Positions 13,901 to 35,699 of a stretch of 55,442 nucleotides of DNA are shown piece after piece. Every line of letters begins with the position of its first letter. Within the stretch, counting starts at the first letter, position 1. This DNA is from a virus (Duplodnaviria > Caudoviricetes). A program made the position numbers and the translations under genes. The DNA lies in IMG/VR virus record IMGVR_UViG_3300035661_000078, positions 1 through 55,442 of that record; one strand, given 5' to 3'. The notes below the pieces were generated by a model, which saw nothing but the letters and a program-made list of their open reading frames with translations, was not told the origin of the DNA and did not search any database.

Positions 13901-14838
13901 TCGACTACCAGGCCTTCCGGGGACGGCTGGAGGACCTGGTGTTCCCGGCCCTCTCTGATCGGCTGAACCACAACAGCCTGCAGAACCGCTTCTCGCTGGG
14001 CTACGCCTACGACTTCTGGGATGCCCTGAAGAATCCCCGCGAATGGGCCACCGGGCACACCGCGGGCAACAGCCCGCTCACCCAGATCGCGGCCGAGGCC
14101 ATCACCGGCAAGGACGCCATCGGCAACGAGATCGGCAACCCCTACGACTACACCCCCGTTCTGCCCCAGGAATGGGCGCAGAAGATCGCCACCTGGATGG
14201 CCAATCCTGACTCCAGCGCCTTCCTTGTGGGCGCGGCCCAGCGGGCCCTGCAAGTTCCGAAGGAGTTCCTCCCGATCAGCCTCACCAACGGCTACCGCCT
14301 GGCAAAGGACGGGGAGAATCCTCTCGTGGCGCTGGGCACCTTCGGCGGCCTGCGAAAGGTTCCCGACTTCAAGGGCTTCGGGCAGTCGGACGCCACCCAG
14401 GCCTCCATGGAACTACTCAAAAAGGGGGCCCAGAACCAGCCGAAGACCGCCGACAAGCAGGCCGACAAGAACCTGCGGGACCAGGCTGTGGCCGCCGCCC
14501 TGAACCAACGGGACGCGGATCAGCTGGATCCTCTGGTGGGCAATGGCTACAAGGCGGAGGGCGTGAAGCGGCTGAAGAATGAGCTCTTCGCCCAGCTCGG
14601 CGGGAAGGGCGAGGACGTGCCCCGCGAAGCGGGAGAGCGGTTCTTCCTGCGGGCCCGCTTCGAGGATCGCCTGGCCATCCTGCAGCTGGCGCGCAAGGAC
14701 GAGTTCCAGCGACTCTGGCCCATCTTCGAGAAGGGCGCAGCCAAGGGGCTGCGGGATTTGAAGGACAAGGATCCTGTTTCGGCTCAGATGGCCCAGGACC
14801 GCATTGACCGCCTCAAGACGAAGTGGGGTCTCGAATGA
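4906..14838 (+). CDS. Giant (3310 aa) internal virion / large polyvalent protein with zincin-like metallopeptidase motif and LPD38-like C-terminus
   Basis: Uninterrupted 9.9-kb ORF. FFHEMSH (HExxH, nt 10969-10983) is followed by PDEWFAE. PLTQIAAEAITGKDAIGNEI resembles LPD38. Confidence 0.7.
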   Translation: MPDLFDFDPNQGPLRVATVNGFAGGTFQTPQRLMDGAIWLDRGKTADPNQVSGWYKLGNDGATWQAAGDHIELPNGQEEQFGQAKTFRRSDGAIFLHPKFFGGGPVAGVQKPGWYEQDDKGNLKPAPAEESYSRRAWDAVAGTVKGIGSGIVNTAKTELGKVSNYLATGDSETSPDDAIKAQIDASSDPLATAQQIAQQAPQMGGTALGAAADEAHRFLVGAGEKFLGWGQAAGGLGLKAIGSLTGDPALKREASQLIHDPVTFDHSREKAQRELDLEETIRQLNEQKLTAQMLAKQGSIIGDAQGNPQGVTAEARDLLTAYTANLHKAVALERQVGQDRAVTSGVKNYLAGAGTLGGDTFDLAAQLALMEATGGLGNAAAREAAATTAQAGALATGQKAASTLARLGLSEELAAKAGKTITQALTTGQTAIPSALEAAAEAGGKAGAGRLPRIANWIADTSQAEQAGALSRGLAHAGQGVAMSLPGAVQEFTDLYGGNEDQGALGALWKVIKEQPKVAAVMVPMLSERLRAMTTPFAQTTVAGAAKNAAARTLTLAGTSTLADLLTSGGDPQAIGNLPAHIKGLLGLELLGAARGIGSARETGRQAADTRALAEDQLGEATKALLQDRPALEQVEAILKQAETEATGNPEQQAHLKDLRDELAARVAQHDQRAQAAAEAIAQTDQVANDLGVKPEDLPRPKARKLADPVTSILGKPTEPITSAPTPVPPPASDPVARHERVLAGLDDTRKILERRILDAKVAGKDTTALEDDLAQTKADMQARQAVAAEDAAPPAPAIASPAPDPALDPIARMQAISDAFDAPETANRWPNLGPNEQRAIWLAHGMDDATNRTPEGVAAYHLAMDRANRKIEGRRGPSGDPDRSAMDAIAAPQMIRPAKGLASDASDASDASAARPALAPPDLSGDTNAVMDHPELRKAGLWQGVKGLAESLKGKLDSAMAKVAAQKILARATKEGDGDATLPTKARILAQAALKTRDPLKVLTDQLGTSDHRDLVLQLGEIPAGMEGQARDAAAMDLMFQAMKDQDFGGNTSDFHTALRDAWRVTEKKRSAKVDPWQLKPFANFSDLERHVHRLTRGLDARLQATKEGADTTLDTVEKHLSGKKAALDQLLPGAQGPAKEGLEARAAQIRAQLSRLGALRQIRATDPENLSGFSRRLGAEIQGWTEDLRTGHQRGQSLVVTDPTGAKSDEYEARTGAIPVGKDENGAPRMLDTGLVHVFPKGGTLPLQRGLEMRGIVNRATPNEEQLRALWEADHKPGVPVGAELPDRPLLVPGTSFDWVRVGNKILPRPRPVAYTEESLEAGENNATRNAVQSVGHYDLAGFARHTNAILDNAGLERLPWREIKEAHERNVTLPESREAEAQRLRAQGALVPTEAHWRAGAAQRAPERSREEIAREAAKAEETRARLGDPTVPPTPEEIQAARDKQKALTPTDELTRREAANELRRLGPGALALAPDALLQRIHDLGAQPMDEETRGANQLIHGETVLSHSEYRALLDFLDKDFFNDRSQAWKEKAPNRAGVSDSLARAAGVDQTDLSSPARRAAEIEASSFDNRRGAEVLAEKKADADRRRAVQLRTASRALDRLLKAGILTGDDFLLPGAKPHETSQGEDGGIITHRNAEFRRTVLDALNDVADLDPRAGDIASELYAKVQETRDTQGDAIPAGHSPDTSFYRRGGRWIPNPESVESEPLFDHRPAVADMNQATGAERNSLLHALGQNPHVRASTQRMMAHEQLMAFADQVRHGATFKDYPEDLRTKIADHLETKAEGLVHEGDWALRDHLENQGQSYFKPIMEPRSPNEGQRTLLRDEDAAALLNQNHPRHEEVLHWFNGEEAPANRFAGLQEIPDTQETPEQRILQTHLIKVNPTVDPAVAVKQLVNDAMTSIGELNTTADVTARVSRWEKSAEPLLQERAATWHRNRDTVRTMTANDPELTRRILEITDRMDPALFSGLTIAPGNAEGKMGTFHFGKNLLELQTGFQNAVATRATEKATSTFFHEMSHFLSTWMDPAFRSRIQLAYDDHVTKMTQEDPFLRALFGEGSPVHWQGLDAAQLEGEKATYLTEGDRAALEKRLRDIPGELDYLRMESGSSDRILNQLFRPLGKEEAKDGFRYALDLREISKKSENFQRYYRFLNPDEWFAETFGNFTQMAFGGNAFQNARARFQDLVGNDQLQTTSDMLAAVKMVQAIAPGERGPSGSQRLRVLGDAVKLMQNREAPGIGRSTQMNRPLSRPLSPVPREKQAQAQADLENVREDGPTARQANGLRDGLDDVERQLFALAHRAGKVVERPISKLVELIASDALSPASRNYSHVLTEIHAKAGATRAYDEVKANEARRAIDAAFRRENSDAFFRSAEDLVKAGRATEISSIQNRQGVRLFKGKIGEEPIWINTNRGGKVLQVMTDRQMDAYRFVESNGARGGRLLTPELRDHLAAWLETKKAMDQERKADFLSIPGVDQNLADSMWVNDYLPHLYPRSGSGRTLDRILEERDTIANLDRFQRRVFQDYDHALRAGGLLPRLSNPVDTYLLGARESQRAMDLRRLLSYMEERGLAHYGYRDDHPDYKRLELGPNGSLAMKRLGYHQEEPLDPGQEPIKAPQKDLWVHPELEPLVRAGFDYGLAKTPFGALYRTAMLANHVLAPAKLTLSGFHLGTITKLGGVEAMRSAYANYSRLRDMGVDHGEALTRSLDGLASQAGIKGALDEGKRMRDLFVEHGRKSAEQLADLNLPAMDKAKILLLRAGGYSPMLAPARESMEREALAQALSEGKVAKTVWKSYTGLMESVQDALMNHTIAPIKTGHITLDMERMLRAKYGENPDLEKLTQDLYAGADKAMPGPYTTTELGEYARQLTAHADNVFGMVNYKNLMMHPVLKDLMHLWNLSFGWRLGTMRIMGKAVDQGLNATPVVGAAYRGLKRGMGGTGIHEAVEGRAPLQFMAAHGMADMLTTLALGALGAAQFPNWRKKKDEQGNPIEEPFDYQAFRGRLEDLVFPALSDRLNHNSLQNRFSLGYAYDFWDALKNPREWATGHTAGNSPLTQIAAEAITGKDAIGNEIGNPYDYTPVLPQEWAQKIATWMANPDSSAFLVGAAQRALQVPKEFLPISLTNGYRLAKDGENPLVALGTFGGLRKVPDFKGFGQSDATQASMELLKKGAQNQPKTADKQADKNLRDQAVAAALNQRDADQLDPLVGNGYKAEGVKRLKNELFAQLGGKGEDVPREAGERFFLRARFEDRLAILQLARKDEFQRLWPIFEKGAAKGLRDLKDKDPVSAQMAQDRIDRLKTKWGLE
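7612..7644 (+). repeat. In-frame 9-bp tandem repeat (GCCTCGGAC)x3+ encoding ASDASDASDAS
   Basis: Read directly from the sequence. Confidence 0.9.
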
Positions 14839-16629: not shown

Positions 16630-16701
16630 TGCGGGGTAGCTCAATGGCAGAGCGCCGGTTTCATACGCCGGAGGTTGTGGGTTCAAGTCCCACCCCCGCC
16701 A
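16630..16701 (+). tRNA. tRNA with CAT anticodon (probably tRNA-Met)
   Basis: Cloverleaf: GCGGGG/CCCCGC acceptor, GCTC/GAGC D arm, CCGGT-TTCATAC-GCCGG anticodon arm, GTGGG-TTCAAGT-CCCAC T arm; CCA not encoded. Confidence 0.9.
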
Positions 16702-16737
16702 CCCCTCCCCAGGGCAGGAATCAGCGGAAGCCCAGTC

Positions 16738-17847
16738 ATGGCTCCTCCCGTCCGCGCCGCGCCTGAGCCGCTGAGTCGGGTTCGGCACCCTGGGGATACT
16801 TGGCTGGTCGTTGTTCACGGCGACAGGCCTCCTTTTTCGGGAGATTTTGTGGACCCCCTTGCTCTTTTTCAGGAAGTCTTTCGTGACGTCTTCCCCGACT
16901 ACCCCACGCGCTGGTTTCGAATGTCATGCAGGGATCAAGACACCTACCTGCTGGGCATCTACCCCCCGGGCCAGCCGCCCCTCGCCGTGCTTGAGAACCT
17001 TCGGCTTCGTGACGTGAACTCCAGAACTGCGGCCCATGCGGTCCTTCAGTCCTTGCGCGACAAAGTGGACCAGACGATGCAAGCCAAGACCCTTCCAGCT
17101 TCGTCTTCCACGAAAGCAGTTGGGTTCGGACACAGCGAGCGGAAGCTGGCCGATGTCTTTGCGGAAAGCGTCCGCGACCAATTCTCGGCCTTCTTTGGTG
17201 ACATGCCACTTCGTTGCCTTGACGTGGAAATCGTGAACCTCGTGGATCGCATCGGAAACGGCATTTGGGTCAACCTCGACTCAGGGGCGGCCTGCGTTTC
17301 GGTCATCACGGATGGCGCAACCATCTACCGCCATGGGATCAGACCCCAGGACGTGCTTGCGGCCCTCTACAACCTGATGAACCAGGCGCTGGGACTGAAA
17401 CCCGTCTTTCCCCCGAACGCGCAGGGCCTCACCTGTATCATCCACCGAGTCGGACCAGCCCTGGACCCGAAGGCACCGCAGGATCCGCCGACAGCCCATC
17501 CTGCCCCATCCCCCATCACCCTTGCGGAGTACGTCGCCTTCACGCGCACCACGGCCTGCAATCCTGGGGCCCTGAGCGCAAGGCGGGAGAACCTGAACTA
17601 CCTGGCCCTGGGCCTCTGCTCCGAGGCGGGCGAGGTGGCCGGCAAGCTCAAGAAGATCCTCCGGGGCGACCCGGACCGACCGACCAACCACGACATCATG
17701 CTGGAGCTGGGGGACGTACTCTGGTACGCCTTCCGCCTGGCTGATGACCTGGGTTACACCCCCGAGTGCGTGCTCTCCGCCAATCGCACCAAGCTCCAGG
17801 ACCGCAAGGTCCGCCAGGTGCTCAAGGGCTCCGGAGATGCGCGATGA
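16738..17847 (+). CDS. MazG-like NTP pyrophosphohydrolase with long unknown N-terminal region (start uncertain)
   Basis: C-terminal LGLCSEAGEVAGKLKK...ELGDVLWY...N..KL..R..R..LKGSGD.R. Confidence 0.8.
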   Translation: MAPPVRAAPEPLSRVRHPGDTWLVVVHGDRPPFSGDFVDPLALFQEVFRDVFPDYPTRWFRMSCRDQDTYLLGIYPPGQPPLAVLENLRLRDVNSRTAAHAVLQSLRDKVDQTMQAKTLPASSSTKAVGFGHSERKLADVFAESVRDQFSAFFGDMPLRCLDVEIVNLVDRIGNGIWVNLDSGAACVSVITDGATIYRHGIRPQDVLAALYNLMNQALGLKPVFPPNAQGLTCIIHRVGPALDPKAPQDPPTAHPAPSPITLAEYVAFTRTTACNPGALSARRENLNYLALGLCSEAGEVAGKLKKILRGDPDRPTNHDIMLELGDVLWYAFRLADDLGYTPECVLSANRTKLQDRKVRQVLKGSGDAR

Positions 17848-18991: not shown

Positions 18992-19296
18992 CCCAGGTTC
19001 TCCCGGAGGGTGGCCCCATGGTGGGCCAGGGCCCGTTCGATGGTCTCCCGGTGTTCATCCAGGAGGAGGCCACGCTCGGTCTCCAGGGGGCTCAGGTGGT
19101 CCTCAAGGAGCTGATCGTCGTCATAGACGCGGACACGGATCACCCCCCCGTAGAGGGCCGGTGGCGCGCCAGGAAGGCGGGGAAAGCGGACGACCAGCTC
19201 CGACACGTCCGTCAGACGATGGATGGGGAGGTAGGGCTCGCCTTCTTCTTGGAGGCGGCGCAGGCGGGCGCCGGGGTTGAGGGGTTCGTCGGTCAT
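18988..19296 (-). CDS. Hypothetical protein
   Basis: RBS GAAAGGA before MTDEPLN; divergent from the integrase. Confidence 0.55.
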   Translation of the reverse strand: MTDEPLNPGARLRRLQEEGEPYLPIHRLTDVSELVVRFPRLPGAPPALYGGVIRVRVYDDDQLLEDHLSPLETERGLLLDEHRETIERALAHHGATLRENLG

Positions 19297-19539
19297 GGGG
19301 TTCCTTTCTGCTGACCCGGGACGGACCCGGAAGGGGTTTTCAGCGATGGCAAAAAAGAGCGCATTAGGTTGCAATTACTAGATGCTGACATTAAGCTGGC
19401 TTCGGAGGTGCATGAGATGGGAAATCTCACCAACTTGATCCGTAGTGCTTGACCGGAGGGCGGGATCGCCTAAATTGTCAATGGCTCCCACGCTTTGCTC
19501 AGCATGATTTTCTAACACGCCTGCAGCAAGGGGTAATTT

Positions 19540-20721
19540 ATGCCGAAGCTCACGAAGCGCCTGATCGAAGACCTCAGCACACCAGGCCCCCGGATCGAGC
19601 TCTGGGATACCCAGACCATTGGCCTCGGGGTCCGCGTCACGGCCCTGGGCAGGAAAACCTTCACCTACCGCTACACCTACCATGGTACTGGCTACCGGCG
19701 GACCCTGGGAGAATGGCCGGCCCTGAGTCTAGACGAAGCCCGGGAGAAGGCCACCGCCCTGCGCCTGAAGATCCTCCAGGGGGAGCCGCCCCACCTTGAG
19801 GGGGAGCCCTCGACCAAGGATTGCGTCTTCGTGGATCTGGCGGATCGTTTCCTACGCCACCACATCATGCCGAAGCTGGCCGCCTCCACGGTGAAGAGCT
19901 ACCGCTGGATCCTGAAGGGCGTCCTCATCCCCGCCTTTGGCCCCTTGCGTGTGGCGGAGATCGAGGCCCACCACGTTGAAGGGTTCCACGCCTCCTTGTC
20001 CGACTCGCCGCGCACGGCCAACCTGGCCGTGTCCGTCCTCTCGAAGATGATGGAACTGGCGGAACGCTGGGGGTATCGCCCCCGGAACTCGAATCCCTGT
20101 CTCTACCTGGACCGGAACCCCGAGAACCAGCGGGATCGGCACCTCTCCGAGGAGGAGTTGGCGCGCCTTTGGAAGACGCTGGATCAGATGGACGCCACGG
20201 GATCGGAGAGCATCTGGCTCACCGCGGCCGTGCGCTTCGCGTTGCTCACCGGCTGCCGAAAGAGCGAGATCGTCGGCCTCGAATGGCGCGACGTGGACCT
20301 GGGCGCTCACACCTACCGCCTCCGCAAGCACAAGACCGTGGGGGTGCTGGGCCCCGTGCTCAAGCACTTGTCGAAGCCAGCATGGGACCTGCTGCAGGCT
20401 CTTCCGCGAAAGCCTGGAGTGGCCCTCGTCTTTCCGGGCCAGCGGCCCGGATGCCGGGTCCACCTGGATGATGGCTGGTTCCGCATTCGAGCAGCAGCCA
20501 AGCTCCAGGATGTCCATTTCCATGACCTCCGGCACACCTTTGGCACCTTGGCTGGCAGCGAGGGACTCTCCCTGCATGCCATCGGAGGGGCCTTGAACCA
20601 GACCTCCCTACGGACCACCCAGCGGTACACCCACCGGGTCGCTGCCGACACCCAGGCCGTGAACGACAAGGTGGGCGCTGCCATCCTCAAGGCTGCGAGG
20701 AGCTCGGCAGGACAAGACTAG
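19540..20721 (+). CDS. int: Tyrosine recombinase / phage integrase with N-terminal arm-binding (DUF4102-like) domain
   Basis: KLTKRLIEDL..LWDT...GLGVRV....KTF.YRY arm domain; TGCRKSEI, HDLRHTF and TTQRY catalytic motifs. Confidence 0.92.
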   Translation: MPKLTKRLIEDLSTPGPRIELWDTQTIGLGVRVTALGRKTFTYRYTYHGTGYRRTLGEWPALSLDEAREKATALRLKILQGEPPHLEGEPSTKDCVFVDLADRFLRHHIMPKLAASTVKSYRWILKGVLIPAFGPLRVAEIEAHHVEGFHASLSDSPRTANLAVSVLSKMMELAERWGYRPRNSNPCLYLDRNPENQRDRHLSEEELARLWKTLDQMDATGSESIWLTAAVRFALLTGCRKSEIVGLEWRDVDLGAHTYRLRKHKTVGVLGPVLKHLSKPAWDLLQALPRKPGVALVFPGQRPGCRVHLDDGWFRIRAAAKLQDVHFHDLRHTFGTLAGSEGLSLHAIGGALNQTSLRTTQRYTHRVAADTQAVNDKVGAAILKAARSSAGQD

Positions 20722-20742
20722 ATGGTTTCAATCGAGCTACCG

Positions 20743-20771
20743 GGCGGGGCCGGTTAGCTCGGGTGTTAGTC
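20743..20771 (+). mobile_element. attC-like half site (L' and R' only)
   Basis: GGCGGGGCCGGTTAGC-TCGGGT-GTTAGTC resembles the right arm of the 20970-21069 site; its TTA is the stop codon of the minus-strand ORF. Confidence 0.7.
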
Positions 20772-21020
20772 GTTGATATACTTCTCGACCCACAGGTTAT
20801 GCGCGTAAATATCGGATTTGGCGCAAGGCGCGCTATGGTCCTTCGCATGGACGCACCGTTTGTCCCCACAGATCGGGCACACAATCATGCGGGCCAAATT
20901 CAACGGGATTCCGTCCACTCGAAGATCGTGGGTCTGTATGCAGGCAAGGCAGGTGCATGGCGAGGCCGCGCCTAACCCGTCATTCGACTCGGGCCCTGCC
21001 TCAGGTGTGTTCTGGTCCAT
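20766..21020 (-). CDS. Cys/His-rich hypothetical protein (cassette-like; start lies inside the attC loop)
   Basis: CTCLAC...MIVCPICGDKRC.HA..H...C; RBS GAAGGGA and ATG lie within the attC-like site. Confidence 0.7.
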   Translation of the reverse strand: MDQNTPEAGPESNDGLGAASPCTCLACIQTHDLRVDGIPLNLARMIVCPICGDKRCVHAKDHSAPCAKSDIYAHNLWVEKYIND

Positions 21021-21069
21021 GTCGTCCCTTCAGGCCCACGGCGGGACCGGTTAGCTTGGTTTGTTAGGC
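20970..21069 (+). mobile_element. Complete attC-like recombination site (100 bp)
   Basis: GCCTAAC (R'') ... ATTCGACTCGGGCCCTGCC / GGCGGGACCGGTTAGC imperfect stem ... GTTAGGC (R'). Confidence 0.85.
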
Positions 21070-21070
21070 G

Positions 21071-21235
21071 TCAATCATCCGACCCCATGCCGACCAGATC
21101 CAGATAACTATCCCGCTCCGCTTTGCGTTCAGCCATGTTCATCATGGCAAGTAGGTGCTTCGTAGTTAGAGGCTTGTCGCCGTTCTTCTTGATCGAATAT
21201 TCCAGGATTTCCTTCAGGCATTCCCACTCATCCAT
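21071..21235 (-). CDS. Small hypothetical protein (cassette-like)
   Basis: RBS AAGGAG; MDEWECLKEILEYSIKKNGDKPLT; TGA stop lies 1 bp from the attC core. Confidence 0.65.
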   Translation of the reverse strand: MDEWECLKEILEYSIKKNGDKPLTTKHLLAMMNMAERKAERDSYLDLVGMGSDD

Positions 21236-21261
21236 GTCTTCTCCTTTTGTTTTCATCCCGC

Positions 21262-21317
21262 GCCTAACCCGTCGTCCCAGTAGACCCCGTTGGGGCCGCT
21301 GAACTCGGGAGCTAGGT
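21262..21317 (+). mobile_element. Degenerate attC-like site (56 bp)
   Basis: GCCTAAC..GTCCCAGTAGACCCC-GTT-GGGGCCGCTGAAC..GCTAGGT; homologous to 22521-22577; core GTTAG reads GCTAG and is still a stop codon. Confidence 0.75.
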
Positions 21318-21548
21318 CGTTCGATAGTCCGTGGTGATGTGGGTGGCGAGGATAGATCTGGCCGCTTCCACCTGGCCAATCAGATACCCAAGATCACATT
21401 CCTCGTCCTCACGGTTCTTGATGGCTCCCAGTATTTCGCTCAAGTCTTTCAGGTTCTGGTGCGCGTCTAGCAGCAGCCTTCGTGCAACTGGTGCGTCGTC
21501 GCAAAGTGGATCGCCTTCAACAACGCATGAATAAATGGACTTGCTCAT
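21312..21548 (-). CDS. Small hypothetical protein (cassette-like)
   Basis: RBS GAAAGGGA before MSKSIYSC; TAG stop within the attC core. Confidence 0.65.
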   Translation of the reverse strand: MSKSIYSCVVEGDPLCDDAPVARRLLLDAHQNLKDLSEILGAIKNREDEECDLGYLIGQVEAARSILATHITTDYRTT

Positions 21549-21568
21549 ATCGTCCCTTTCACGCTTGC

Positions 21569-21622
21569 GCCTAACCGGGCGCTGCACTCGGACCCTGCCT
21601 CGGGTGCGTTCTAGTTCGTCAT
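21569..21622 (+). mobile_element. attC-like half site (R'', L'' and part of the loop)
   Basis: GCCTAACCGGGCGCTGCACTCGGACCCTGCCTCGGGTGCGTTCT aligns with the left half of 20970-21069; right arm absent. Confidence 0.7.
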
Positions 21623-21654
21623 CTCGCCCGATCTGTACTCAGAGGCGCGGGGAG

Positions 21655-22413
21655 TCATGACATCTCCTTCCTGTGTGCCTCAGCCATACGTAGCGCCTTG
21701 GCCCGCACAAACTCAAAGGCCGCCACGCGCTCCTCAGATTTCGCGCTACCGTCATCAGGGAACTCGCTGGGGTTGCTATTGCGGATGCCGATGGCGTCCC
21801 ACTCATCCACTGAGTGGAAGAGGCATCCCATGAGCACGTAGGGCGCGCCGTCAACACTGACCGCAGCCCAGCATTGGTACTTGTAGAGACCTGTGAGCAC
21901 CACGACTGCGGCCAGTTTCAGGTCCTCGTATCTTGCACCGGTGAGTTTCGCCCCGACAAGATTCGCTCCGGAGAGATCGGCCCCGGCGAGGTCCGCCTCA
22001 TCGAGATTCGCCCCGGAGAGGTTCGCACCGGCCAGTTTCGCCCCAGCCAGGCCTGCACCGTAGAGGCTCGTCCTGGCAAGGTTCGCGCCATAGAGATCAG
22101 CATCGGTAAGGTTTACCATGTCGAGGTTCGCTCCGGTGAGATTCGCACCTGCGAGGTCTGTGCCGTGGAGGTTCGCCCCGGCGAGTATCGCCTTTGTGAG
22201 GTTCGCACCGGAAAGGTCCGCGTCAGAGATGTCGGCACCGGCGAGATCCGACCCGGTGAGATCGACACCGGAGAGATCGGCCCCATAAAGGTCCGCCCTG
22301 GAGTCTTCGTCACCCGCAAGCCATTTCTTGTGATTAGCCAAGACGGTCTGGAGCTTTGCGGGGGTATATCGTTGCAACGTCATCGGAGTTTCCTTCTTGG
22401 TGGTTCGGGTCAT
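21655..22413 (-). CDS. Pentapeptide-repeat protein
   Basis: Long run of A(D/N)LxG repeats followed by a non-repeat C-terminal domain; alternative start at 22383. Confidence 0.92.
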   Translation of the reverse strand: MTRTTKKETPMTLQRYTPAKLQTVLANHKKWLAGDEDSRADLYGADLSGVDLTGSDLAGADISDADLSGANLTKAILAGANLHGTDLAGANLTGANLDMVNLTDADLYGANLARTSLYGAGLAGAKLAGANLSGANLDEADLAGADLSGANLVGAKLTGARYEDLKLAAVVVLTGLYKYQCWAAVSVDGAPYVLMGCLFHSVDEWDAIGIRNSNPSEFPDDGSAKSEERVAAFEFVRAKALRMAEAHRKEMS

Positions 22414-22520
22414 GGGTTCGATCCGTGGAGTTGGGTTGGGTGTCTCTCAATCACTGTTCCGCGCTTATCGAAGATGATGAATTTCGTGTTTCTCGTGGTT
22501 CTCCTTTTGTTGGTTGATCG

Positions 22521-22577
22521 CCCTAACCAGTCGTTCCAGCGGACCCCGTTGGGGCCGCCGAGCTTGGGTCGTTAGGC
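22521..22577 (+). mobile_element. Complete attC-like site (57 bp, 59-base-element type)
   Basis: CCCTAAC CAGTC GTTC(C)AGCGG(A)CCCC GTT GGGGCCGCCGAGC TTGGGTC GTTAGGC; the unpaired C and A on the + strand correspond to the canonical extrahelical G and T on the bottom strand. Confidence 0.88.
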
Positions 22578-22579
22578 GC

Positions 22580-22894
22580 TCAATTACGCTTCAACCATTC
22601 ATAGAGTTTGCCTTTGATGTGGTCTGTCATCTTTGTTCCGAACGGACAAGTTTTGGCCCACTCGTTGGTCAATCCTCCGCTGTGGCAGATGAACTTCTCC
22701 AGTTTGTTGATGCGCGTTTGTAGGTGGGCCTCCCGCGCCGTGTAGCGTTCCCGTTCCTCAGCCCTGCCAGCCTCAAAAATAGCTCTCACCATATCGTTGA
22801 AGCTGAGGGGCATCCTTCGAAACACGTCGCATTCATCGTCCGTCAAGCGCCTAACCTGTCGCTCAAGTCGGACGTTGTCATCTTCCTCTCTCAT
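22580..22894 (-). CDS. Hypothetical protein with attC-derived N-terminus
   Basis: RBS GAAAGGAG; MREEDDNVRLERQVRR, where VRLERQVR is the attC arm read on the bottom strand; TGA lies 2 bp from the next attC. Confidence 0.7.
   Translation of the reverse strand: MREEDDNVRLERQVRRLTDDECDVFRRMPLSFNDMVRAIFEAGRAEERERYTAREAHLQTRINKLEKFICHSGGLTNEWAKTCPFGTKMTDHIKGKLYEWLKRN
22849..22874 (+). mobile_element. attC-like half site (R'' and L'') embedded in a CDS
   Basis: GCCTAACCTGTCGCTCAAGTCGGACG matches a classical attC left arm. Confidence 0.7.
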
Positions 22895-22911
22895 GCTTCT
22901 CCTTTCATGCG

Positions 22912-23244
22912 TCACTGCTCCATTAGCAGGTTGTATTCGAGGTTTCGCTTGGCTCGATCTGAACTGGCGCATTTCGAGCACAGGTTGGTATTCGGCGTGA
23001 TGCTGTGGTCATGCCCGTTGTCGGCAGGACCACCACACCATGGGCATTTGCTCGACCCGGGCCCTTGGGGCTGTGCATGTTCTCGGAGTTGAGAGCAGTT
23101 TTCTTCGTCGTGCTTTTCGGAGGGGAAGAACCAGCGGAGGCATTTTGGGCACTTCCGCTGCTTGTTCCCAGCCTTGATCTGAGCCTCTGCCCAGTCATGC
23201 CATGTGATATATCCTGCGGGGGATGGGCCGAATCGACGCTTCAT
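22912..23244 (-). CDS. Zn-finger-like hypothetical protein
   Basis: CPKC, CPWC and CSKC motifs. Confidence 0.6.
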   Translation of the reverse strand: MKRRFGPSPAGYITWHDWAEAQIKAGNKQRKCPKCLRWFFPSEKHDEENCSQLREHAQPQGPGSSKCPWCGGPADNGHDHSITPNTNLCSKCASSDRAKRNLEYNLLMEQ

Positions 23245-23251
23245 GGTTCCA

Positions 23252-23446
23252 CTAGGTGGACATTGGTGGATTTTCGATGAAGAACGGGCAGTAGAACGGC
23301 GGTGCTGTGGGGCTCAGGTCGGCAAAGATGAGGTGTCCAAGCCCCCTGCCATCGTCTGCCTCACAGTCCATGAAACAGGCGCAGGTATCGCGCTTGCCGC
23401 AGGTCGTTCCGATACACCGGTAAACATCGCGAGAAAGCTGGCTCAT
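23252..23446 (-). CDS. Small Cys-rich hypothetical protein
   Basis: DVYRC.G..C.KR.TC...CPFFI; ATGA coupling. Confidence 0.6.
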   Translation of the reverse strand: MSQLSRDVYRCIGTTCGKRDTCACFMDCEADDGRGLGHLIFADLSPTAPPFYCPFFIENPPMST

Positions 23447-23673
23447 GCCGTCCTCGCCGCCAGTTCCTTGCAGTACTCGATCAGTTCGTCCTGCATCCGC
23501 TTACCGTTGTCGCCAAGGGCAAACCTGATACGGGAGATCAGGTCGAAGGCGCTGGCGTTGTCCTTCCTGGCTTGTTCCAAGTCATCCCGCAGGGAATCCA
23601 GGGCGGGACGCCATACGGACTCGGGGGCATCACAGGTCAGCAGGCATTGTTCGAGGGTTGAAAGGTCAGTCAT
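23443..23673 (-). CDS. Hypothetical protein
   Basis: 76-aa ORF within the leftward operon. Confidence 0.6.
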   Translation of the reverse strand: MTDLSTLEQCLLTCDAPESVWRPALDSLRDDLEQARKDNASAFDLISRIRFALGDNGKRMQDELIEYCKELAARTA

Positions 23674-23695
23674 GTGGGGTGCCTCTGGGCATCTA

Positions 23696-23715
23696 CAGCT
23701 TGGTGTTTGTTAGAC
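23696..23715 (+). mobile_element. Possible attC remnant (R' and part of L')
   Basis: CAGCTTGGTGTTTGTTAGAC compared with TAGCTTGGTTTGTTAGGC of the 20970-21069 site; its TTA is the stop of the DUF551 gene. Confidence 0.5.
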
Positions 23716-24081
23716 GGTCGGGGGTTCAGGGAGGGGCATCCAGTGGGTCGGCTGGCAACCGTCCTCGATGGGCGCATTGGCATCGGCTTCCCAATCACGG
23801 GACCACTCATCACCTTCCCCGGTGTATGTGGCGATGGTGATGAGGCTGGTGTATCCAAGTTCGAGCATGCCGCCTTCGTTCTCATCCAGATAGATCAGCA
23901 CTTCCTGACCCTTCTCGGGGAGGCGGTCAGCGCAGGGAATCCAGCCTTTCAACTTTCGCTCCTTCTCTAGTGCGTCGAGGACATCATCTAAGACCTGGGC
24001 TGTTTCGGGGTCTGTGTTCGGCATAAACTTCTCCAGGCTGAACCCGCCTTCCATCGGTGTCTTTGCGGGGTGGATCGTCAT
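23710..24081 (-). CDS. DUF551-domain phage protein
   Basis: GWIPCADRLPE...VL....PTHWMPLPEPP. Confidence 0.85.
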   Translation of the reverse strand: MTIHPAKTPMEGGFSLEKFMPNTDPETAQVLDDVLDALEKERKLKGWIPCADRLPEKGQEVLIYLDENEGGMLELGYTSLITIATYTGEGDEWSRDWEADANAPIEDGCQPTHWMPLPEPPTV

Positions 24082-24224
24082 GGCATCCTCCGGGTCTTGG
24101 TGGTGTCGTGGGTGCGAGGCCCGCTGCGCCGCTCGTCGGGCGGGGGTAGCAGCAGGATCGTCACCAGGCCGAGGATGAAGAGGAAGAAGAGGCAGAGCTG
24201 ATATTCGAAGTTGGCGTCAAGCAT
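24078..24224 (-). CDS. Small membrane protein
   Basis: LCLFFLFILGLVTILLL TM helix. Confidence 0.5.
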   Translation of the reverse strand: MLDANFEYQLCLFFLFILGLVTILLLPPPDERRSGPRTHDTTKTRRMP

Positions 24225-24387
24225 TGGGCGCCTCATCTGTAGGCAATGGTTCCAGGTCTTCGATCCGGTAGGATGCGATCTCACCAGACCTCATCGCGCA
24301 GGCCACCGGGGCTAGGTCAACCATGACGAGCAGGAAGAACAACGTGACGAGTACCGCTTCCAGGTGGCGCGGGTTGATCCTTGGCAT
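24217..24387 (-). CDS. Small membrane protein (not in ORF track)
   Basis: Manually translated: MPRINPRHLEAVLVTLFFLLVMVDLAPV..., 56 aa, fills the operon gap. Confidence 0.45.
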   Translation of the reverse strand: MPRINPRHLEAVLVTLFFLLVMVDLAPVACAMRSGEIASYRIEDLEPLPTDEAPNA

Positions 24388-24389
24388 GC

Positions 24390-24572
24390 CTACTCTCCAA
24401 AGATGATTTCGTGCAGCGTGGCTGGCAGGGTCACGAGTACGGTGGGAGTCTCAAGGATCTGGAGGTAGATGCGCTCCCGCTCCTCGTTGCGGAGCTGCTT
24501 CAGCTCCTTGTCCTGGCGCTCCACCACGCGGCGGAGCTGGTGTTCGTTCATGTCTTCGATTTCGGAAAGCAT
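24390..24572 (-). CDS. Small coiled-coil protein
   Basis: RBS AGGAG; 60 aa. Confidence 0.55.
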   Translation of the reverse strand: MLSEIEDMNEHQLRRVVERQDKELKQLRNEERERIYLQILETPTVLVTLPATLHEIIFGE

Positions 24573-24581
24573 GCGGTGCTC

Positions 24582-25028
24582 CTAGGCAGCAGAGGGTTGG
24601 CGGGTCTTTGTGGCGAGCCGGTAGGCCTGGCTCTTCCGGCGGTGGTAGGCGCAGCGACTGAAGCCCTGGGCCCGCTCCTCGGGCGTCAGGTGGGTGGAAC
24701 AGCGGGTGCAGATGCCCCGCTTGCGATTGTTGGCCCGGTGCCGCAGCGTGATCTCGGCCTGCGCCTCGGCACAGGCGGCACAGGTCAACCTCCCCTCGAC
24801 GGGCTCACGATCGAAGCACACGGCACACCACCCCTTGGCGATGGCCTCCCGTCGCTTCTCGTGGAGTATGCGGGCGTTGTACTCCGAGCGTTTCTTTCCG
24901 CAACTCCGGCAGGTCTGCCGGTCTCGGCGATCCTCCTCCCGGGTTCCGCCACAATCCCGGCAGCGGCCCGACGCAAGGATGCGCTGGACACTCTGGGCAT
25001 TGCCGCGTCTTTTCGCTTTGGTGCTCAT
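24582..25028 (-). CDS. Basic multi-CxxC (Zn-finger) protein
   Basis: RBS GGAGG; three tandem G.CxxC...CxxC/H units. Confidence 0.7.
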   Translation of the reverse strand: MSTKAKRRGNAQSVQRILASGRCRDCGGTREEDRRDRQTCRSCGKKRSEYNARILHEKRREAIAKGWCAVCFDREPVEGRLTCAACAEAQAEITLRHRANNRKRGICTRCSTHLTPEERAQGFSRCAYHRRKSQAYRLATKTRQPSAA

Positions 25029-25181
25029 GGGAACCTCCCGAACAAAGTATTGCAAATCACACCGACTTTCAACGAAAAACGGTTGAGTTCATTAACAAGT
25101 TAAAACTATCCATTACAGGGGGTCATAACTTCTGTGTTGACATGGTGATATAAAGCCATCAACACACGCGAAGGTGGCCCC

Positions 25182-25841
25182 ATGACGCTCAAAGCGAATC
25201 CTTTTGTCACGGCTGTTGCCAACTACAAGGGCGGCGTGGGCAAGTCCACCGTGGCCGTCCACCTGGCGGCGCACCTGGGCGCCAGCCTCATTGACCTGGA
25301 TCAGAACGGGGACAGCGCCCGCTTCGGCCTGCGGGCAGGCCTCGACACCCATCGAATGCACGACGCCAGCCCGGAGGAGGTCTTCGATCTGGTGGCTCAG
25401 CTCCGCAAGGACGGCCGCAGCGTGGTGCTGGATTGTCCGCCAGGCTCCAGTTACCTGACCCAGGTTGCCCTCCTGACCTGCGACGCCGTGCTGTGCCCCA
25501 CGCGCCCCGGTCCCAACGATGTCTACGCCATCGGTCGCGTGAACCTCGCGGTGAAGGACGCGAGTTCGGCCCGCCAGGAGCCCATCCCCCTGCTCTACAT
25601 TTGCAACTTCTTCCGGAATACCGAGGTCGCCAAAATCTTCGTGGGCACACTTCAATCCTCCGACAAGGGGGAGTACATCGGCCGCATGTGGGAGCGGAAG
25701 GAATACGCCGAGGCGGTGGAGGCGGGCGTCCCGGTCTGGGACTTCGCCCCGAAGTCAACAGGTGCCGAGGAAATGCGGAACCTGGTTTGCTTCCTGGAGG
25801 CCACCCGCGGCTCCCGGGAGAAGGTGCGGCGACATGCCTAA
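25182..25841 (+). CDS. parA: ParA-family partition ATPase (short, type Ib-like)
   Basis: Deviant Walker A NYKGGVGKST, IDLDQNG and VLDCPP motifs; no N-terminal HTH. Confidence 0.9.
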   Translation: MTLKANPFVTAVANYKGGVGKSTVAVHLAAHLGASLIDLDQNGDSARFGLRAGLDTHRMHDASPEEVFDLVAQLRKDGRSVVLDCPPGSSYLTQVALLTCDAVLCPTRPGPNDVYAIGRVNLAVKDASSARQEPIPLLYICNFFRNTEVAKIFVGTLQSSDKGEYIGRMWERKEYAEAVEAGVPVWDFAPKSTGAEEMRNLVCFLEATRGSREKVRRHA

Positions 25842-26274
25842 GGAGACCTTCGAGGAGAAACGGGCCCGACTCATGGCCCATGTCCGGGAGGGGGAGCTGG
25901 ACTTCGCGGCCACCATGCGGCGGACAATCCCCGCGCCCGCCCCCGCGGAGGCGCAAGCTCCTTTGCCGGCCGCGCCCCTCCAGGCGGCCTCCCCTCGAGA
26001 CGAGGAGCCCCGAAATGCGTCCCCAGCCCTGCCAGAGCCCTTCCGGTTTTCCGAGGGGCGCAGCGCCAAGGGAGCCTCGCTCCGGGCCCGGGGCTGGCTC
26101 CCGGGAAACAGCCTCTATGATCCCGTGGTTCGGTCGGCGGCCATGCAGTTGGCGGACGACATGGGGATTCATTTTGCCGAGCTCCAGAACATCGCCCTGG
26201 GCCTCATCGTGGATCCCACCCTCCGGCCCCAGAAGGCCGAGGAAATGCTCCAACGGCTGCGCGACCGGCACTAA
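25834..26274 (+). CDS. Putative partition adaptor (disordered N-terminus, small helical C-terminal domain)
   Basis: Overlaps the parA stop; architecture resembles type Ib centromere-binding proteins (positional inference). Confidence 0.5.
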   Translation: MPKETFEEKRARLMAHVREGELDFAATMRRTIPAPAPAEAQAPLPAAPLQAASPRDEEPRNASPALPEPFRFSEGRSAKGASLRARGWLPGNSLYDPVVRSAAMQLADDMGIHFAELQNIALGLIVDPTLRPQKAEEMLQRLRDRH

Positions 26275-33883: not shown

Positions 33884-34537
33884 CTAGGCCCGGTTCACGA
33901 TGGCCATCATGGCCGCGATGAGGAGTTCCGCGCGCTTGGCGGGATCCTTCTCCTGCTCGGCCGTGGCGCTCTCGATGTTGCCGAGGTGCTCCCGGGCCGT
34001 GGGCTCGTCCATGGTCGTCAGGAGTTTGGCGAAGGCCTTCTCCTTGGCTTCCTTGTAGCGTTCCTTGGCGGCAGCCAGGGCCGACGGCGGAGGCAGAGGA
34101 ATCGCGGGCCTTACCTGCTGCCCGGATCCGCCCTTCGCGGCATTGCCCACGGCGCTGTTGCCATCGTCGTCCTCCTGGGCAACGCCCGTCAGGGCGGCCA
34201 GGGCGTAGCGGCGGCAGTAGGTGATGGCCGAGCCTACTCCCTGGGCGTCATGCTTGCTCACGGGCGCGGAACAGTCGGAGGCCATCCACTCTCCGCTCTT
34301 GTGGGAGAGAAGTGTCGTCACCGTGACCACCCCGTTGTCCAGCTGCGGGTGCTGGGTGATGGCGATGCCGTGCTTCGAGAAGACCGGCCGAACCGTGTTG
34401 AGCACTTCTGCCAGATCGGCGTACTTGGACTTGAAGGCCGGGTTCACCGAGCCCTTCGTGGCGTTCTCCACTTCGGCCTGGGCGAGCGCGATGGCCTCGC
34501 TGAGTGCGGCGATGCTTTCGGTGTGCTGGAGCATCAT
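33884..34537 (-). CDS. erf: ERF-family single-strand annealing protein
   Basis: NPAFKSKYADL...HKSGEW...QGVGSAITYCRRYAL..EDDDGN. Confidence 0.92.
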   Translation of the reverse strand: MMLQHTESIAALSEAIALAQAEVENATKGSVNPAFKSKYADLAEVLNTVRPVFSKHGIAITQHPQLDNGVVTVTTLLSHKSGEWMASDCSAPVSKHDAQGVGSAITYCRRYALAALTGVAQEDDDGNSAVGNAAKGGSGQQVRPAIPLPPPSALAAAKERYKEAKEKAFAKLLTTMDEPTAREHLGNIESATAEQEKDPAKRAELLIAAMMAIVNRA

Positions 34538-35556: not shown

Positions 35557-35699
35557 GGGGTGGGGCCGACGAGGCCCAAGTAGAAGGCAGAGGCGGCCAG
35601 AAGCCCCAGCGCCAGCCCCAGAAGGGGCCGACGCTTGAGGGTTCCAGCAAGGAAAAACACCACGGCAATCGTGGTCATGACGAGGTAGGGCGGCATCAT
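35553..35699 (-). CDS. Small membrane protein
   Basis: Two hydrophobic segments; ATGA-coupled at both ends. Confidence 0.55.
   Translation of the reverse strand: MMPPYLVMTTIAVVFFLAGTLKRRPLLGLALGLLAASAFYLGLVGPTP

Follow-up and report, generated by a model that had tools for sequence, protein, structure and literature searches.

A row of integron-type attC sites was found in a phage genome, with every gene of the row on the attC bottom strand and no IntI detected beside it. We consider it probable that this phage carries a CALIN (an attC cluster that lacks an integron integrase), with inverted cassettes that a host IntI moves in trans and that general recombination has eroded. The window, by which we mean the whole stretch of 55,442 nucleotides that was analysed, comes from a real, temperate phage with a P4-type integrase. 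The array forms the distal end of the early operon, which runs leftward, and is convergent with the integrase gene; 17 nt separate the end of that gene from the first element (20738). For site scoring, 36 attC sites, all beside intI and all from two chromosomal integrons (the G002 and G003 arrays), were the sole input for a covariance model (R1). The whole 55 kb was searched on both strands with filters off; R1 comes from two genomes only (effective sequence number 2.18), and the E-values given below are rough. The features of the region are as follows.

19540..20721, + strand: phage tyrosine integrase, P4-type, with arm-binding domain (Pfam Phage_integrase 6.6e-20, Arm-DNA-bind_3 2.3e-13; phrog_1 integrase 4.6e-63)
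20738..20771, + strand: attC right half with stem, L' GGTTAGC, spacer and R' GTTAGTC at 20765-20771 (pattern match 20755-20769)
20766..21020, - strand: cassette gene c84, 84 aa, Cys-rich (ORF list)
20970..21069, + strand: complete attC, 100 nt, long variable loop, R'' GCCTAAC, R' GTTAGGC (R1 38.6 bits, E 5.4e-8)
21071..21235, - strand: cassette gene c54, 54 aa, with AAGGAG ribosome-binding site (sequence and ORFs)
21262..21317, + strand: degenerate attC, 56 nt, R' GCTAGGT (R1 21.1 bits, E 0.0034)
21312..21548, - strand: cassette gene c78, 78 aa (ORFs)
21567..21600, + strand: attC left half with R'' GCCTAAC, spacer and L'' arm (pattern match 21569-21592, 1 mismatch)
21655..22413, - strand: pentapeptide-repeat protein, 252 aa (Pfam Pentapeptide 3.5e-39)
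22521..22577, + strand: complete short attC, 57 nt, R'' CCTAAC, R' GTTAGGC (R1 33.7 bits, E 1.2e-6)
22580..22894, - strand: cassette gene c104, 104 aa (ORFs)
22847..22875, + strand: attC left half inside the 5' end of c104 (exact pattern match 22849-22872)
22912..23673, - strand: c110 (22912-23244), c64 (23252-23446) and c76 (23443-23673), tightly packed, no intervening sites (ORFs)
23693..23715, + strand: degenerate attC right half (CAGC for TAGC), R' GTTAGAC at 23709-23715 kept (sequence)
23710..24081, - strand: DUF551 gene, TAA stop inside R' (Pfam DUF551 3.4e-16)

Organization of the array

The seven attC-like elements that the sequence-only reading had placed within 3 kb all lie where it put them. 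Its account of the genes also held: every gene is on the minus strand, and five ORFs (stops at 20766, 21071, 21312, 22580 and 23710) end in or at most 2 bp after an R' seven-mer with the GTTAG core. The pentapeptide-repeat and DUF551 matches are on the minus strand. The stop of c84 is inside R' of the element at 20738..20771 and its start is inside the loop of attC 20970-21069; c54 and c104 each stop 2 bp after the R' of 20970-21069 and 22521-22577, respectively, and the TAG within R' of 21262..21317 is the stop codon of c78. The element at 20738..20771 forms the left end of the array and lacks its left half; it matches the right half at 21043-21066 at 71%. Metagenome contigs from three of four runs have a complete site here, with a left arm, 40 other letters and then the sequence from 20738 onwards.

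No Pfam or PHROG match was obtained for c84, c54, c78, c110, c64 or c76. A homologue of c84 occurs in viral locus L065 (37.5% identity), and over its last 45 residues c110 matches a gene of L033 at 78% identity. The first 16 codons of c104 cross the left half at 22847; its C-terminal half is 82% identical to an L074 cassette that lies between two attC sites, and c104 shows 61.5% identity to a gene in L033. The pentapeptide-repeat gene, flanked by a left half without a following right half (21567..21600) and by a complete site, does not form a clean cassette; its homologues are found in G001 (66% identity, outside the array), L064 and L082. The DUF551 protein has relatives in L088 (96% identity) and L049 (72%), and its gene is present or absent among related phages, with one contig of run X3 skipping 23712-24075.

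Identity of the sites

R1 found exactly three sites in the window, all on the + strand: the two that had been read as complete, 20970-21069 and 22521-22577, and also 21262-21317, each at the coordinates first assigned. The next-best score anywhere in the window, on either strand, was 14.5 bits (rough E 0.22). When read on the minus strand, 20970-21069 scored 9.4 bits; three model pairs in this site were flagged as non-standard. The left-half pattern GCCTAACCNNNCRYTCNANNCGGA, with up to 2 mismatches, matched the window only at 20970, 21569 and 22849, all on the + strand, and had no match in 100 shuffles. The exact 10-mer GCGCCTAACC occurs four times, all within 20968-22856, and the right-half pattern TAGCN{5,10}GTTAG matched 20755-20769, 21052-21067 and one unrelated place (54573, minus strand). 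The elements belong to real repeat families: 20968-21016 and 21567-21615 agree at 80%, and 21263-21309 and 22522-22568 at 85%.

Bacterial genomes contain at least 175 matches to the left-arm pattern of the window, many of them in long arrays. All five such genomes tested encode an IntI over the NCBIfam cut-off (458-495 bits), and in G002 and G003 intI is divergent and just upstream of the array. The integrons of G002 (Rhodanobacter sp. Col0626), G003 (a betaproteobacterial MAG) and Geothrix/Holophagaceae are sedentary chromosomal integrons of the same attC family as the phage arrays. Common to both are R'' GCCTAACC, an L'' with extra C, CGG and extra A, an L' of GGTTAGC or GCTTAAC, R' GTTAGGC and the strand asymmetry. 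Sequence comparison supports the assignment of the window sites to the attC family of real integrons, with the + strand as the attC top strand and all genes on the bottom strand.

The three complete window sites show imperfect arm pairing and score 21-39 bits, compared to 32-52 in G001 and up to 68 elsewhere. Folding of the sites as ssDNA, a check named in the sequence-only reading, gave energies no better than those of shuffles (z -1.2 to +0.4). The attC site 22521-22577, which is 93% identical to a G001 site (L028:4017-4072), carries the extra C and A on its left arm. Once the C and A are taken out, this arm (GTTC-C-AGCGG-A-CCCC) pairs perfectly with the right arm of 21262 (GGGGCCGCTGAAC), as had been noticed; the fit suggests that crossing-over took place within the central hairpin and not at R'. 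The complete window sites, all three, are chimeric, and the window's own sites, worn in look, may be poor IntI substrates today.

Anatomy and gene orientation across phage arrays

The sites of other phages were taken from viral loci found with a pattern from this window, and the counts given here are not frequencies among phages. In an alignment that was fitted to the model, 94.6% of cells in 149 phage sites were paired, compared to 73.9% in shuffles, none of 500 of which reached 94.6%; changes on both sides were seen in 28 of 29 pairs, compared to 26-39% for slid controls. The AAC/GTT triplets are kept in 146-148 of the 149 sites. The extra C (138/149) and the extra A (142/149) are both on the 5' arm with nothing opposite, and the 5' spacer is 5 nt in 139 sites and the 3' spacer 5-7 nt in 142.

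A bottom-strand ribosome-binding site and start codon with an ORF of at least 40 codons were present in or beside 143 of 191 viral sites, and the same signals on the top strand at 10 of 191. Where a bottom-strand ORF had an upstream site, it stopped in the R' core of that site in 68 of 115 cases. The 274 chromosomal sites examined included 18 of the bottom-strand and 74 of the top-strand type. Orientation was also judged by homology, using 129 cassettes of other viral contigs, outside the window. PHROGs matches were obtained for 28 of 125 bottom-strand ORFs but for none of 100 top-strand ORFs, and Pfam likewise matched none of the 100; in the two IntI-linked chromosomal arrays, Pfam matched 18 of 60 top-strand and none of 47 bottom-strand ORFs. 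Gene inversion is general among these phage arrays. The Rhodanobacter, betaproteobacterial and Geothrix integrons have intI, long homogeneous arrays, top-strand genes and bacterial cargo (GNAT, glyoxalase, immunity proteins), whereas the phage arrays are short and heterogeneous with bottom-strand genes.

Cassette differences between phages

Related phages have the same sites with different cargo, as had been anticipated: sites found in both the window and G001 enclose different genes. Loci L066 and L067 have one 472 nt unit in common (99.6% identity) between unrelated flanks. The unit begins at the R' core of its upstream site, a different one of unequal length in each locus, and extends to GTTA in the site that belongs to it; both of its ends lie no more than a few bases from G|TT. 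A cassette common to G001 and G024 (92.7%) begins at R', and the homology of the window begins at the G of R' (23709) with G024 (95.5%) and at 23697 with G056 (92%). Loose contig ends at 23709 and 23712 have at least three different left contexts. Contigs of four metagenome runs branch at 21567, 22523 and 23709-23712, and in all four they diverge at 21567 and 21599; cassette bins in these runs reach 5-15 times the backbone depth, and in run X1 the contigs over c78 sum to a depth 5 to 6 times as high as the phage backbone.

The expectation that breakpoints between related phages fall at the cores was borne out in part. Some common cassettes end exactly at R', but the window junctions at 22580 and 22909 (versus G057) and at 24076, the right end of the DUF551 indel, are away from cores. 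R' overlaps a stop codon, so any breakpoint there coincides with the end of a gene, a position that ordinary mosaicism of phages would favour as well. In L088, a left half and two genes are followed by a right half of another type. Considering the off-core junctions, the truncation of four of the seven window elements to halves and the chimeric complete sites, general recombination has therefore also shaped the window array.

We propose that the region is a CALIN in which each gene has its stop codon within or immediately behind the R' core of one site and its start next to, or within the variable loop of, the following one, such that read-through from the phage early promoter would express the whole inverted row. 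When the phage replicates in an integron-bearing host, the host IntI would fold and cut the bottom strands at G|TT; SOS control is frequent for IntI, as it is for prophage induction. Cassettes would thereby be excised, inserted and swapped between phage arrays, and phage general recombination (Erf, RecE-like exonuclease) would cross over in the conserved sites and generate chimeric and half sites. IntI is presumably the acting enzyme, and the degraded sites of the window might still be in use. An inverted array of early genes suggests a pool of exchangeable gene cassettes that phages maintain for themselves.

We think it rather unlikely, though deserving of weight, that the sites are of integron descent but no longer acted on by IntI, being kept as intergenic blocks (stop, ribosome-binding site, start) and serving as short homologies for module swapping of the Erf/RecE type. 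Mosaic temperate phages have short conserved boundary or linker sequences between modules where gene content differs. Genes for two Erf-like proteins and a RecE-like exonuclease are present in the window, whose three complete sites are chimeric and which has half sites at 20743, 21567, 22847 and 23696; L088 has mixed halves. Some junctions fall at gene starts or ends without a core, and start codons lie inside the site in 49 of the 143 viral sites with a bottom-strand start. However, selection for a linker or hairpin fails to explain features that serve IntI in 149 diverged phage sites, namely the triplets, the two unpaired spacers of fixed length and the one-arm extra C and A. It also sits poorly with the ends of the L066/L067 cassette near G|TT beside upstream sites of unequal length. 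Boundary sequences of mosaic phages are likewise short, conserved and intergenic, but they lack the structure of single-strand recombination sites, and integrons contain no relatives of them.

Origin of the array and the recombinase

It is improbable that the array is a passive passenger, acquired in a single event (imprecise excision, for instance) from an integron in a host chromosome and simply decaying since. The array adjoins the integrase gene near the expected attP, many of its sites are truncated and the site family is abundant in bacterial chromosomes. Nevertheless, its gene direction is opposite to that of chromosomal arrays and the cargo of phage arrays is of phage type (DUF551, Mom-like and Lar-like proteins, methyltransferases). 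The architecture also recurs in integrase-free records bounded by direct terminal repeats and in phages built differently (tailed, with or without tape measure), and the window capsid protein has no relative in 29 of the array-bearing viral records.

The sequence-only reading had attributed shuffling to a host IntI or to the phage's own recombinases, and the second part is not supported. Recombination of the sites by the phage's tyrosine integrase (19540-20721) is very doubtful, even though its gene abuts the array and the available text of Cury et al. 2016 (PMC4889954) describes phage-like integrases beside a few attC sites. The best match to the IntI profile TIGR02249 in the window, a record 78% complete, is this protein, which is no integron integrase, at 17.6 bits against a cut-off of 265, consistent with the earlier observation that no intI is present. 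It has an arm-binding domain, as integrases with double-stranded att substrates typically do. Furthermore, a tyrosine recombinase is present in 5 and absent from 24 of 29 other array-bearing viral records, and none was found in the 63% complete record of G001, the closest array. An IntI above the cut-off was found in 1 of 50 array-bearing viral records.

That the elements are unrelated repeats (terminators, REP-like elements or RNA stability hairpins) resembling attC by chance is scarcely credible and, as far as sequence analysis goes, refuted: they are GC-rich imperfect palindromes between genes and have no Rfam match, but they were found on one strand only by a model trained solely on IntI-linked attC sites, show no terminator-like match on the transcribed strand at any site, and have fixed unpaired spacers and one-sided extra bases.

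Relation to known systems

Chromosomal integrons also contain some reverse-oriented cassettes, such as the toxin-antitoxin cassettes of the Vibrio superintegron; these are outnumbered by the forward ones around them and presumably rely on promoters of their own. They likewise have the gene on the bottom strand, whereas in the phages whole arrays are inverted and would be read through from the phage operon. Integrons with an inverted integrase, e.g. in Treponema, are also unusual in orientation in the available text of Cury et al. 2016 (PMC4889954), but in them it is intI that is reversed, with the cassette genes still on the attC top strand, while the window array has no intI and turned genes.

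Seven GenBank phage records matched the window region, all within the pentapeptide-repeat gene and none at a site. The literature, as far as its text was accessible, yielded no report of an inverted-cassette class, although phage CALINs themselves are known. The accessible part of Qi et al. 2023 (PMC9892861) reports 17 among 10,705 GenBank phage genomes; it contains no report of systematic bottom-strand genes, starts in the site loop or metagenomic phages, and describes the cassettes of two virulent phages as having the orientation typical of bacterial arrays. Those CALINs resemble the window in having attC sites in a phage with no IntI nearby, and some carry methyltransferase cargo. In the attC x attI1 assay described there (Qi et al. 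2023, PMC9892861, Front Microbiol), IntI1 recombined five of six phage-borne attC sites.

The window phage and its array region

The window record, rated as 78% of a virus, carries structural and packaging genes for the small and large terminase, a portal/adaptor, the major head protein, an internal virion protein and an endolysin. Its recombination genes encode two Erf-like annealing proteins, a RecE-like exonuclease and an SSB, and genes for DnaB, ParA and a tyrosine integrase with an arm-binding domain are also present. This gene content indicates that the window is a temperate phage and not a fragment of a bacterial chromosome. The array region is made up of small genes that are all encoded on the minus strand; together they are the distal part of a leftward operon whose start is near 25.1 kb. 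The small array proteins of the window showed no family matches in Pfam or PHROGs. The integrase gene and the complete sites are arranged as follows:

19540-20721, plus strand: tyrosine integrase, after which the array region comes
20970-21069, plus strand: complete attC site
21262-21317, plus strand: complete attC site with a degenerate R' box
22521-22577, plus strand: complete attC site

Other features of the window were observed outside the array. A single ORF of 3310 aa (4906-14838, plus strand) had no PHROG match at an E-value of 1e-5 or better; its neighbours are other unannotated ORFs, with the endolysin gene upstream, and it may encode a giant virion or injected protein. A complete tRNA-Met gene (16630-16703, plus strand) overlaps the start of a 390 aa ORF (16675-17847) that has a MazG-like C-terminus; the tRNA gene is 2.8 kb upstream of the integrase gene and could relate to an attachment site. 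The two Erf-like genes (33884-34537 and 35696-36124, both minus strand) flank the RecE-like exonuclease gene (34534-35556), which is an unusual duplication of the recombination module.

The window sites belong to the attC family of chromosomal integrons

A sequence-only reading had described the repeats of the array region as complete and half attC-like elements. The repeats are real and fall into two families of 47-49 nt with 80-85% identity. The left-arm pattern GCCTAACCNNNCRYTCNANNCGGA with up to two mismatches matched solely at 20970, 21569 and 22849 and in none of 100 shuffles, and a right-arm pattern matched at 20755 and 21052. A common head, GCGCCTAACC, is present in four copies that are confined to the array region. 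As had been claimed, the left arm of 22521 exactly complements the right arm of 21262 after the removal of one C and one A. The ends of 20970-21069 (GCCTAAC...GTTAGGC) and 22521-22577 (CCTAAC...GTTAGGC) show R'' (RYYYAAC) and R' (GTTRRRY) with the conserved AAC/GTT of attC; the ends of 21262-21317 are GCCTAAC...GCTAGGT, with R' degenerate.

The left-arm pattern was searched over one genome per prokaryotic species and was found in at least 175 places. Among the matches listed, many were in long same-strand arrays of Rhodanobacter, Geothrix/Holophagaceae and betaproteobacterial MAGs. In two of these genomes, Rhodanobacter sp. Col0626 (G002) and a betaproteobacterial MAG (G003), intI is divergent from the array and immediately upstream, the classical arrangement. 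All five genomes of this kind that were tested have an IntI above the NCBIfam cut-off.

An attC covariance model, R1, was built from 36 sites in the arrays beside intI in G002 and G003 alone, which were given the canonical structure; the model draws on two genomes and gives approximate E-values. With filters off and both strands of the whole window searched, R1 recovered exactly the three complete sites, all on the plus strand, at 38.6 bits (20970-21069), 33.7 bits (22521-22577) and 21.1 bits (21262-21317). The highest score elsewhere in the window was 14.5 bits; on its minus strand, the best site reached 9.4 bits. These results indicate that the window sites, including both of those first described as complete, belong to the attC family of real integrons and that the plus strand is their top strand. 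An Rfam scan of 19000-26000 with E-values up to 10 gave four chance-level matches only and no attC family.

To describe the anatomy of the sites, 149 of them from 35 sources (the window and other viral loci) were aligned by fitting to the R1 model, a procedure that favours structure. In this model-fitted alignment, 94.6% of the cells were paired compared with 73.9% in shuffles, and changes on both sides were seen in 28 of 29 pairs; slid controls gave 26-39%. The AAC/GTT pairs are standard in 146-148 of the 149 sites. An extra C (138/149) and an extra A (142/149) are found on the 5' arm of the top strand only, with nothing opposite them in 145-146 sites. The 5' spacer is 5 nt in 139 sites, the 3' spacer is 5-7 nt in 142, and the sites range from 53 to 132 nt in length. 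The phage sites therefore form imperfect hairpins with L''/L' boxes, extrahelical bases on the L'' arm only, unpaired central spacers and a variable terminal structure, as attC sites do. These unpaired elements are the three to which the accessible text of Nivina et al. (2016, PMC5027507) attributes the choice of strand by IntI. The window site 22521-22577 has both the extra C and the extra A, and the arms of all three complete sites contain mismatched pairs. Folding of single-stranded DNA, which had been proposed as a check, did not distinguish the sites: z ranged from -1.2 to +0.4 over both strands of the three complete sites, no better than shuffles, and folding energy alone does not mark them.

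We considered whether the seven elements could be intrinsic terminators of the minus-strand genes. A scan of 20400-25600 found no minus-strand terminator-like match at any of them, and the sole such match lies inside the small gene at 23252-23446 (c64, minus strand). When 20700-24100 was compared by blastn with the GenBank phages in INPHARED, seven records were matched, all through the pentapeptide gene only and none at a site. The 17-mer GACCCCGTTGGGGCCGC was present at seven loci in viral contigs, of which six are chance matches within genes and one, in the closest viral array (L010 of record G001), is a real site.

Genes in phage arrays are on the bottom strand

Genes in the window array had been described as lying exclusively on the bottom strand, and this holds: the minus strand carries all genes between and beside the sites, as well as the pentapeptide and DUF551 matches and all ribosome-binding sites. 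These inverted genes are read through from the phage early operon. The five ORF stops earlier placed at the site cores (20766, 21071, 21312, 22580 and 23710, all minus strand) are indeed within the R' seven-mer with its GTTAG core or at most 2 bp after it.

The orientation of genes was then surveyed with R1 over 61 viral loci (212 matches) and 55 genome loci (283 matches); the viral loci were picked by a pattern from the window itself and their counts do not give prevalence among phages. Calling orientation by ORF coverage and GC3 was too noisy in GC-rich DNA and miscalled even the window, and it was replaced by two tests. The first required a ribosome-binding site, an ATG or GTG and at least 40 codons, and its viral set included the three window sites and was cleared of four duplicate loci (L073, L081, L084 and L089) and of overlapping rows of L083. 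A bottom-strand start in or just beside the site was found for 143 of 191 viral sites, and a top-strand start after R' for 10 of 191. The start was inside the site itself in 49 of the 143, and 68 of the 115 bottom-strand viral ORFs that have an upstream site stop within the R' core of that site. For the 274 chromosomal sites (46 loci), a top-strand arrangement was called in 74 and a bottom-strand arrangement in 18.

The second test compared the longest ORF on each strand of 129 viral cassettes, with loci L083 and L038 and the window left out, to PHROGs at an E-value of 1e-5 or below. Matches were obtained for 28 of 125 bottom-strand ORFs, while none of 100 top-strand ORFs matched PHROGs and none matched Pfam. 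Two IntI-linked arrays (60 cassettes) served as a mirror control, in which Pfam matches were found for 18 of 60 top-strand versus 0 of 47 bottom-strand ORFs. Since the two tests agree, the inversion is a general feature of the phage arrays.

The window array is a CALIN

A CALIN is defined in the available description of IntegronFinder (Cury et al. 2016) as a group of attC sites on one strand, less than 4 kb apart, without intI. The window has three R1 matches on the plus strand within 1.6 kb and no IntI in its 55,442 nt, the record being 78% complete. The absence of IntI, noted earlier from sequence, was confirmed with TIGR02249, whose best score of 17.6 bits, on the phage integrase, is compared with a cut-off of 265. 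The array is not a complete integron on this ground, nor on that of cassette genes on the top strand transcribed from a promoter at the attI end, as its genes are on the minus, or bottom, strand.

The window array is thus a phage-borne CALIN, an already known kind of element. The first report of attC sites in phages, as rare finds, was that of Qi et al. (2023, PMC9892861); in its accessible text, 17 CALINs were present among 10,705 GenBank phage genomes, and IntI1 recombined five of six phage attC sites. Such clusters were therefore already known from phages. The direction of the cassettes described there is typical and inverted genes are not reported in that text, whereas arrays of the window class are inverted. 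Phage-like integrases beside a few attC sites are mentioned in the available part of Cury et al. (2016, PMC4889954). What is new here is the bottom-strand position of the genes, the starts within the site and the recurrence across unrelated metagenomic phages. A full-text search of the literature outside subscription journals returned nothing on inverted cassette arrays in phages.

Phage arrays differ by cassettes

Between the window and G001, the closest viral array, the sites are common at 79-93% identity and the genes between them are not, while the backbone right of the array is common. Two other viral loci, L066 and L067, share a unit of 472 nt at 99.6% identity with unrelated flanks; it extends from the R' core of two different upstream sites, through a gene and a whole site, to GTTA. 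A cassette common to G001 and record G024 (92.7%) begins at R'. Homology of the window with G024 (95.5%) begins at 23709, the G of R', and that with record G056 (92%) begins at 23697. All-against-all blastn of the viral loci showed that the shared stretches are mostly the sites themselves, with few shared cassettes.

The array was also compared with assembled contigs from four metagenome runs (X1-X4, two of microbial mat and two of sediment), one of which may be the source sample. Contigs branched over the array at 21567, 21599, 22523, 23709 and 23712. Some of this branching is at R'' and R', which, like the shared cassettes that end at R', is only indirect evidence for recombination of the folded bottom strand at G|TT by an integron integrase. 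One contig skips the DUF551 gene, and three runs have a complete site where the window has a right half only (20738). No weight was given to a joint between 21599 and 22552, each of whose sides is only 20-24 letters long. The summed contig depth in X1 was about 33 on the backbone and up to 496 over the cassettes, highest at the DUF551 gene. Across the four runs, the depth over several cassettes (21309-21710 and 22515-24122) was 5-15 times that of the phage backbone, which indicates that those genes sit in many other genomes of the same metagenomes.

Crossovers within sites

Breakpoints among related phages had been predicted at the site cores. This was so in part: some shared cassettes end at R', but the junctions at 22580 and 22909, both relative to record G057, and at 24076, the right end of the DUF551 indel, are off the core. 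Since the stop codon is part of R', a break there also falls at the end of a gene. Half sites make up four of the seven window elements, and at another viral locus (L088) a left half and two genes precede a right half that belongs to a different type of site. Well-paired versions of the mismatched complete sites of the window exist in G001. Crossovers inside conserved sites have evidently reshaped the window array, and the Erf/RecE functions of the phage are the likely cause. The window's own sites may now be weak substrates.

The arrays occur in different phages without a common recombinase

IntI above the cut-off was found in one of 50 array-bearing viral records (G014), and any tyrosine recombinase in 5 of 29. 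PF02914, the Mu-type transposase, had no match in the 29 viral records and likewise none in the control genomes. Some array-bearing records have direct terminal repeats and are rated 100% complete. Four of these were annotated around the array and proved to be phages of different build, varying in tape measure, tail spike, head-tail adaptor, primase and exonuclease genes, with the arrays within or at the end of early/replication operons. The major head protein of the window has no relative in the 29 records, which shows only that these phages are not close kin of the window phage. Thus the sites are tied neither to one phage lineage nor to a phage-borne recombinase, and the parsimonious interpretation is that the host would supply the enzyme.

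Searches of candidate host groups gave few phage matches. TerL had three matches only, at 30-35% identity, in 401 genomes of the class of G003 and one, at 32%, in 133 genomes of the order of G005; the major head protein had none in 401 genomes of the order of G003.

Several individual records deserve mention. In G014, rated a 100% complete virus, IntI (13600-14544, plus strand, 461.7 bits; contig of L038) is divergent from attC sites at about 12394-12780 (minus strand), and this record represents either a complete integron carried by a phage or a chromosomal integron misclassified as viral. Loci L074 and L081, 35,310 nt apart in one record of 55,216 nt (G045), have identical model matches at identical offsets, so that the record appears to be a concatemer whose unit genome measures about 35.3 kb. 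Chromosomal attC sites of Geothrix/Holophagaceae (Acidobacteriota; L144, L161, L101, L122 and others) are unusually long, about 124 nt, with a loop conserved within and between genomes; the viral locus L086 is of the same type and may be a lead to hosts. In a Holophaga MAG (G006), the pattern matches at 814854-825477 are 72-83 kb from the only full intI (742470-743411), as would be the case for either one very long array or a distinct CALIN.

A proposed exchange system and its cargo

Integrons are known as bacterial devices. Here, the site family of chromosomal integrons in soil and sediment bacteria is also found in many metagenomic phages with a consistently opposite design, in which the genes are on the strand cut by IntI, the starts are embedded in the site and the integrase is absent. 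As the most likely mechanism, we propose that a host IntI would cut the folded bottom strands at G|TT and would excise, insert and exchange cassettes among phage genomes in one cell. According to the accessible part of a review (PMC8946536), many integrons have an SOS-regulated IntI, and the lagging-strand template favours the folding of attC; both fit a replicating, induced phage.

In its fullest form the proposal is tentative; taken jointly, its parts are possible and somewhat improbable. Phages of several unrelated lineages would keep a mirror-image integron, a cassette pool with genes on the recombinogenic bottom strand. The attC site would act as the 5' leader of one gene, with the ribosome-binding site and start in the loop, and would hold the stop of the preceding gene. 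Expression of such cassettes would be limited to phage early operons; in a bacterial integron they would be silent, just as bacterial cassettes would be in a phage. Arrays without their own integrase would borrow the host IntI; where this is SOS-induced, its level would increase as prophages are induced. If transcription and replication are co-directional, the bottom strand would be both the lagging-strand template and the non-template strand, an orientation that would favour folding.

If a host IntI does move these cassettes, phages would be able to trade early accessory genes by a site-specific route, and some of these genes resemble anti-restriction functions. Integrons and phages would then use one recombination machinery for separate, mutually silent gene pools, and the strand rule relating orientation to transcription and replication could be tested in a natural inverted system. 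The arrangement also bears on the origin of cassettes and attC, with the site here as the 5' leader of a gene and not its 3' tail.

Among the genes annotated in other arrays are those for two DNA methyltransferases, three Mom-like proteins and one Lar-like protein, together with genes for a DHH phosphoesterase and a PAPS reductase. These annotations suggest that the cargo includes counter-defence genes; the pool may store counter-defence functions, as a counterpart to the defence cassettes found in chromosomal integrons.

One further PHROG family, the functionally uncharacterised phrog_12600 (E-values of 1e-60 to 1e-65), is carried in or near the arrays of three different phages, at L276:5303-6061, L028:3379-4002 (a locus of G001) and L067:1206-1967.
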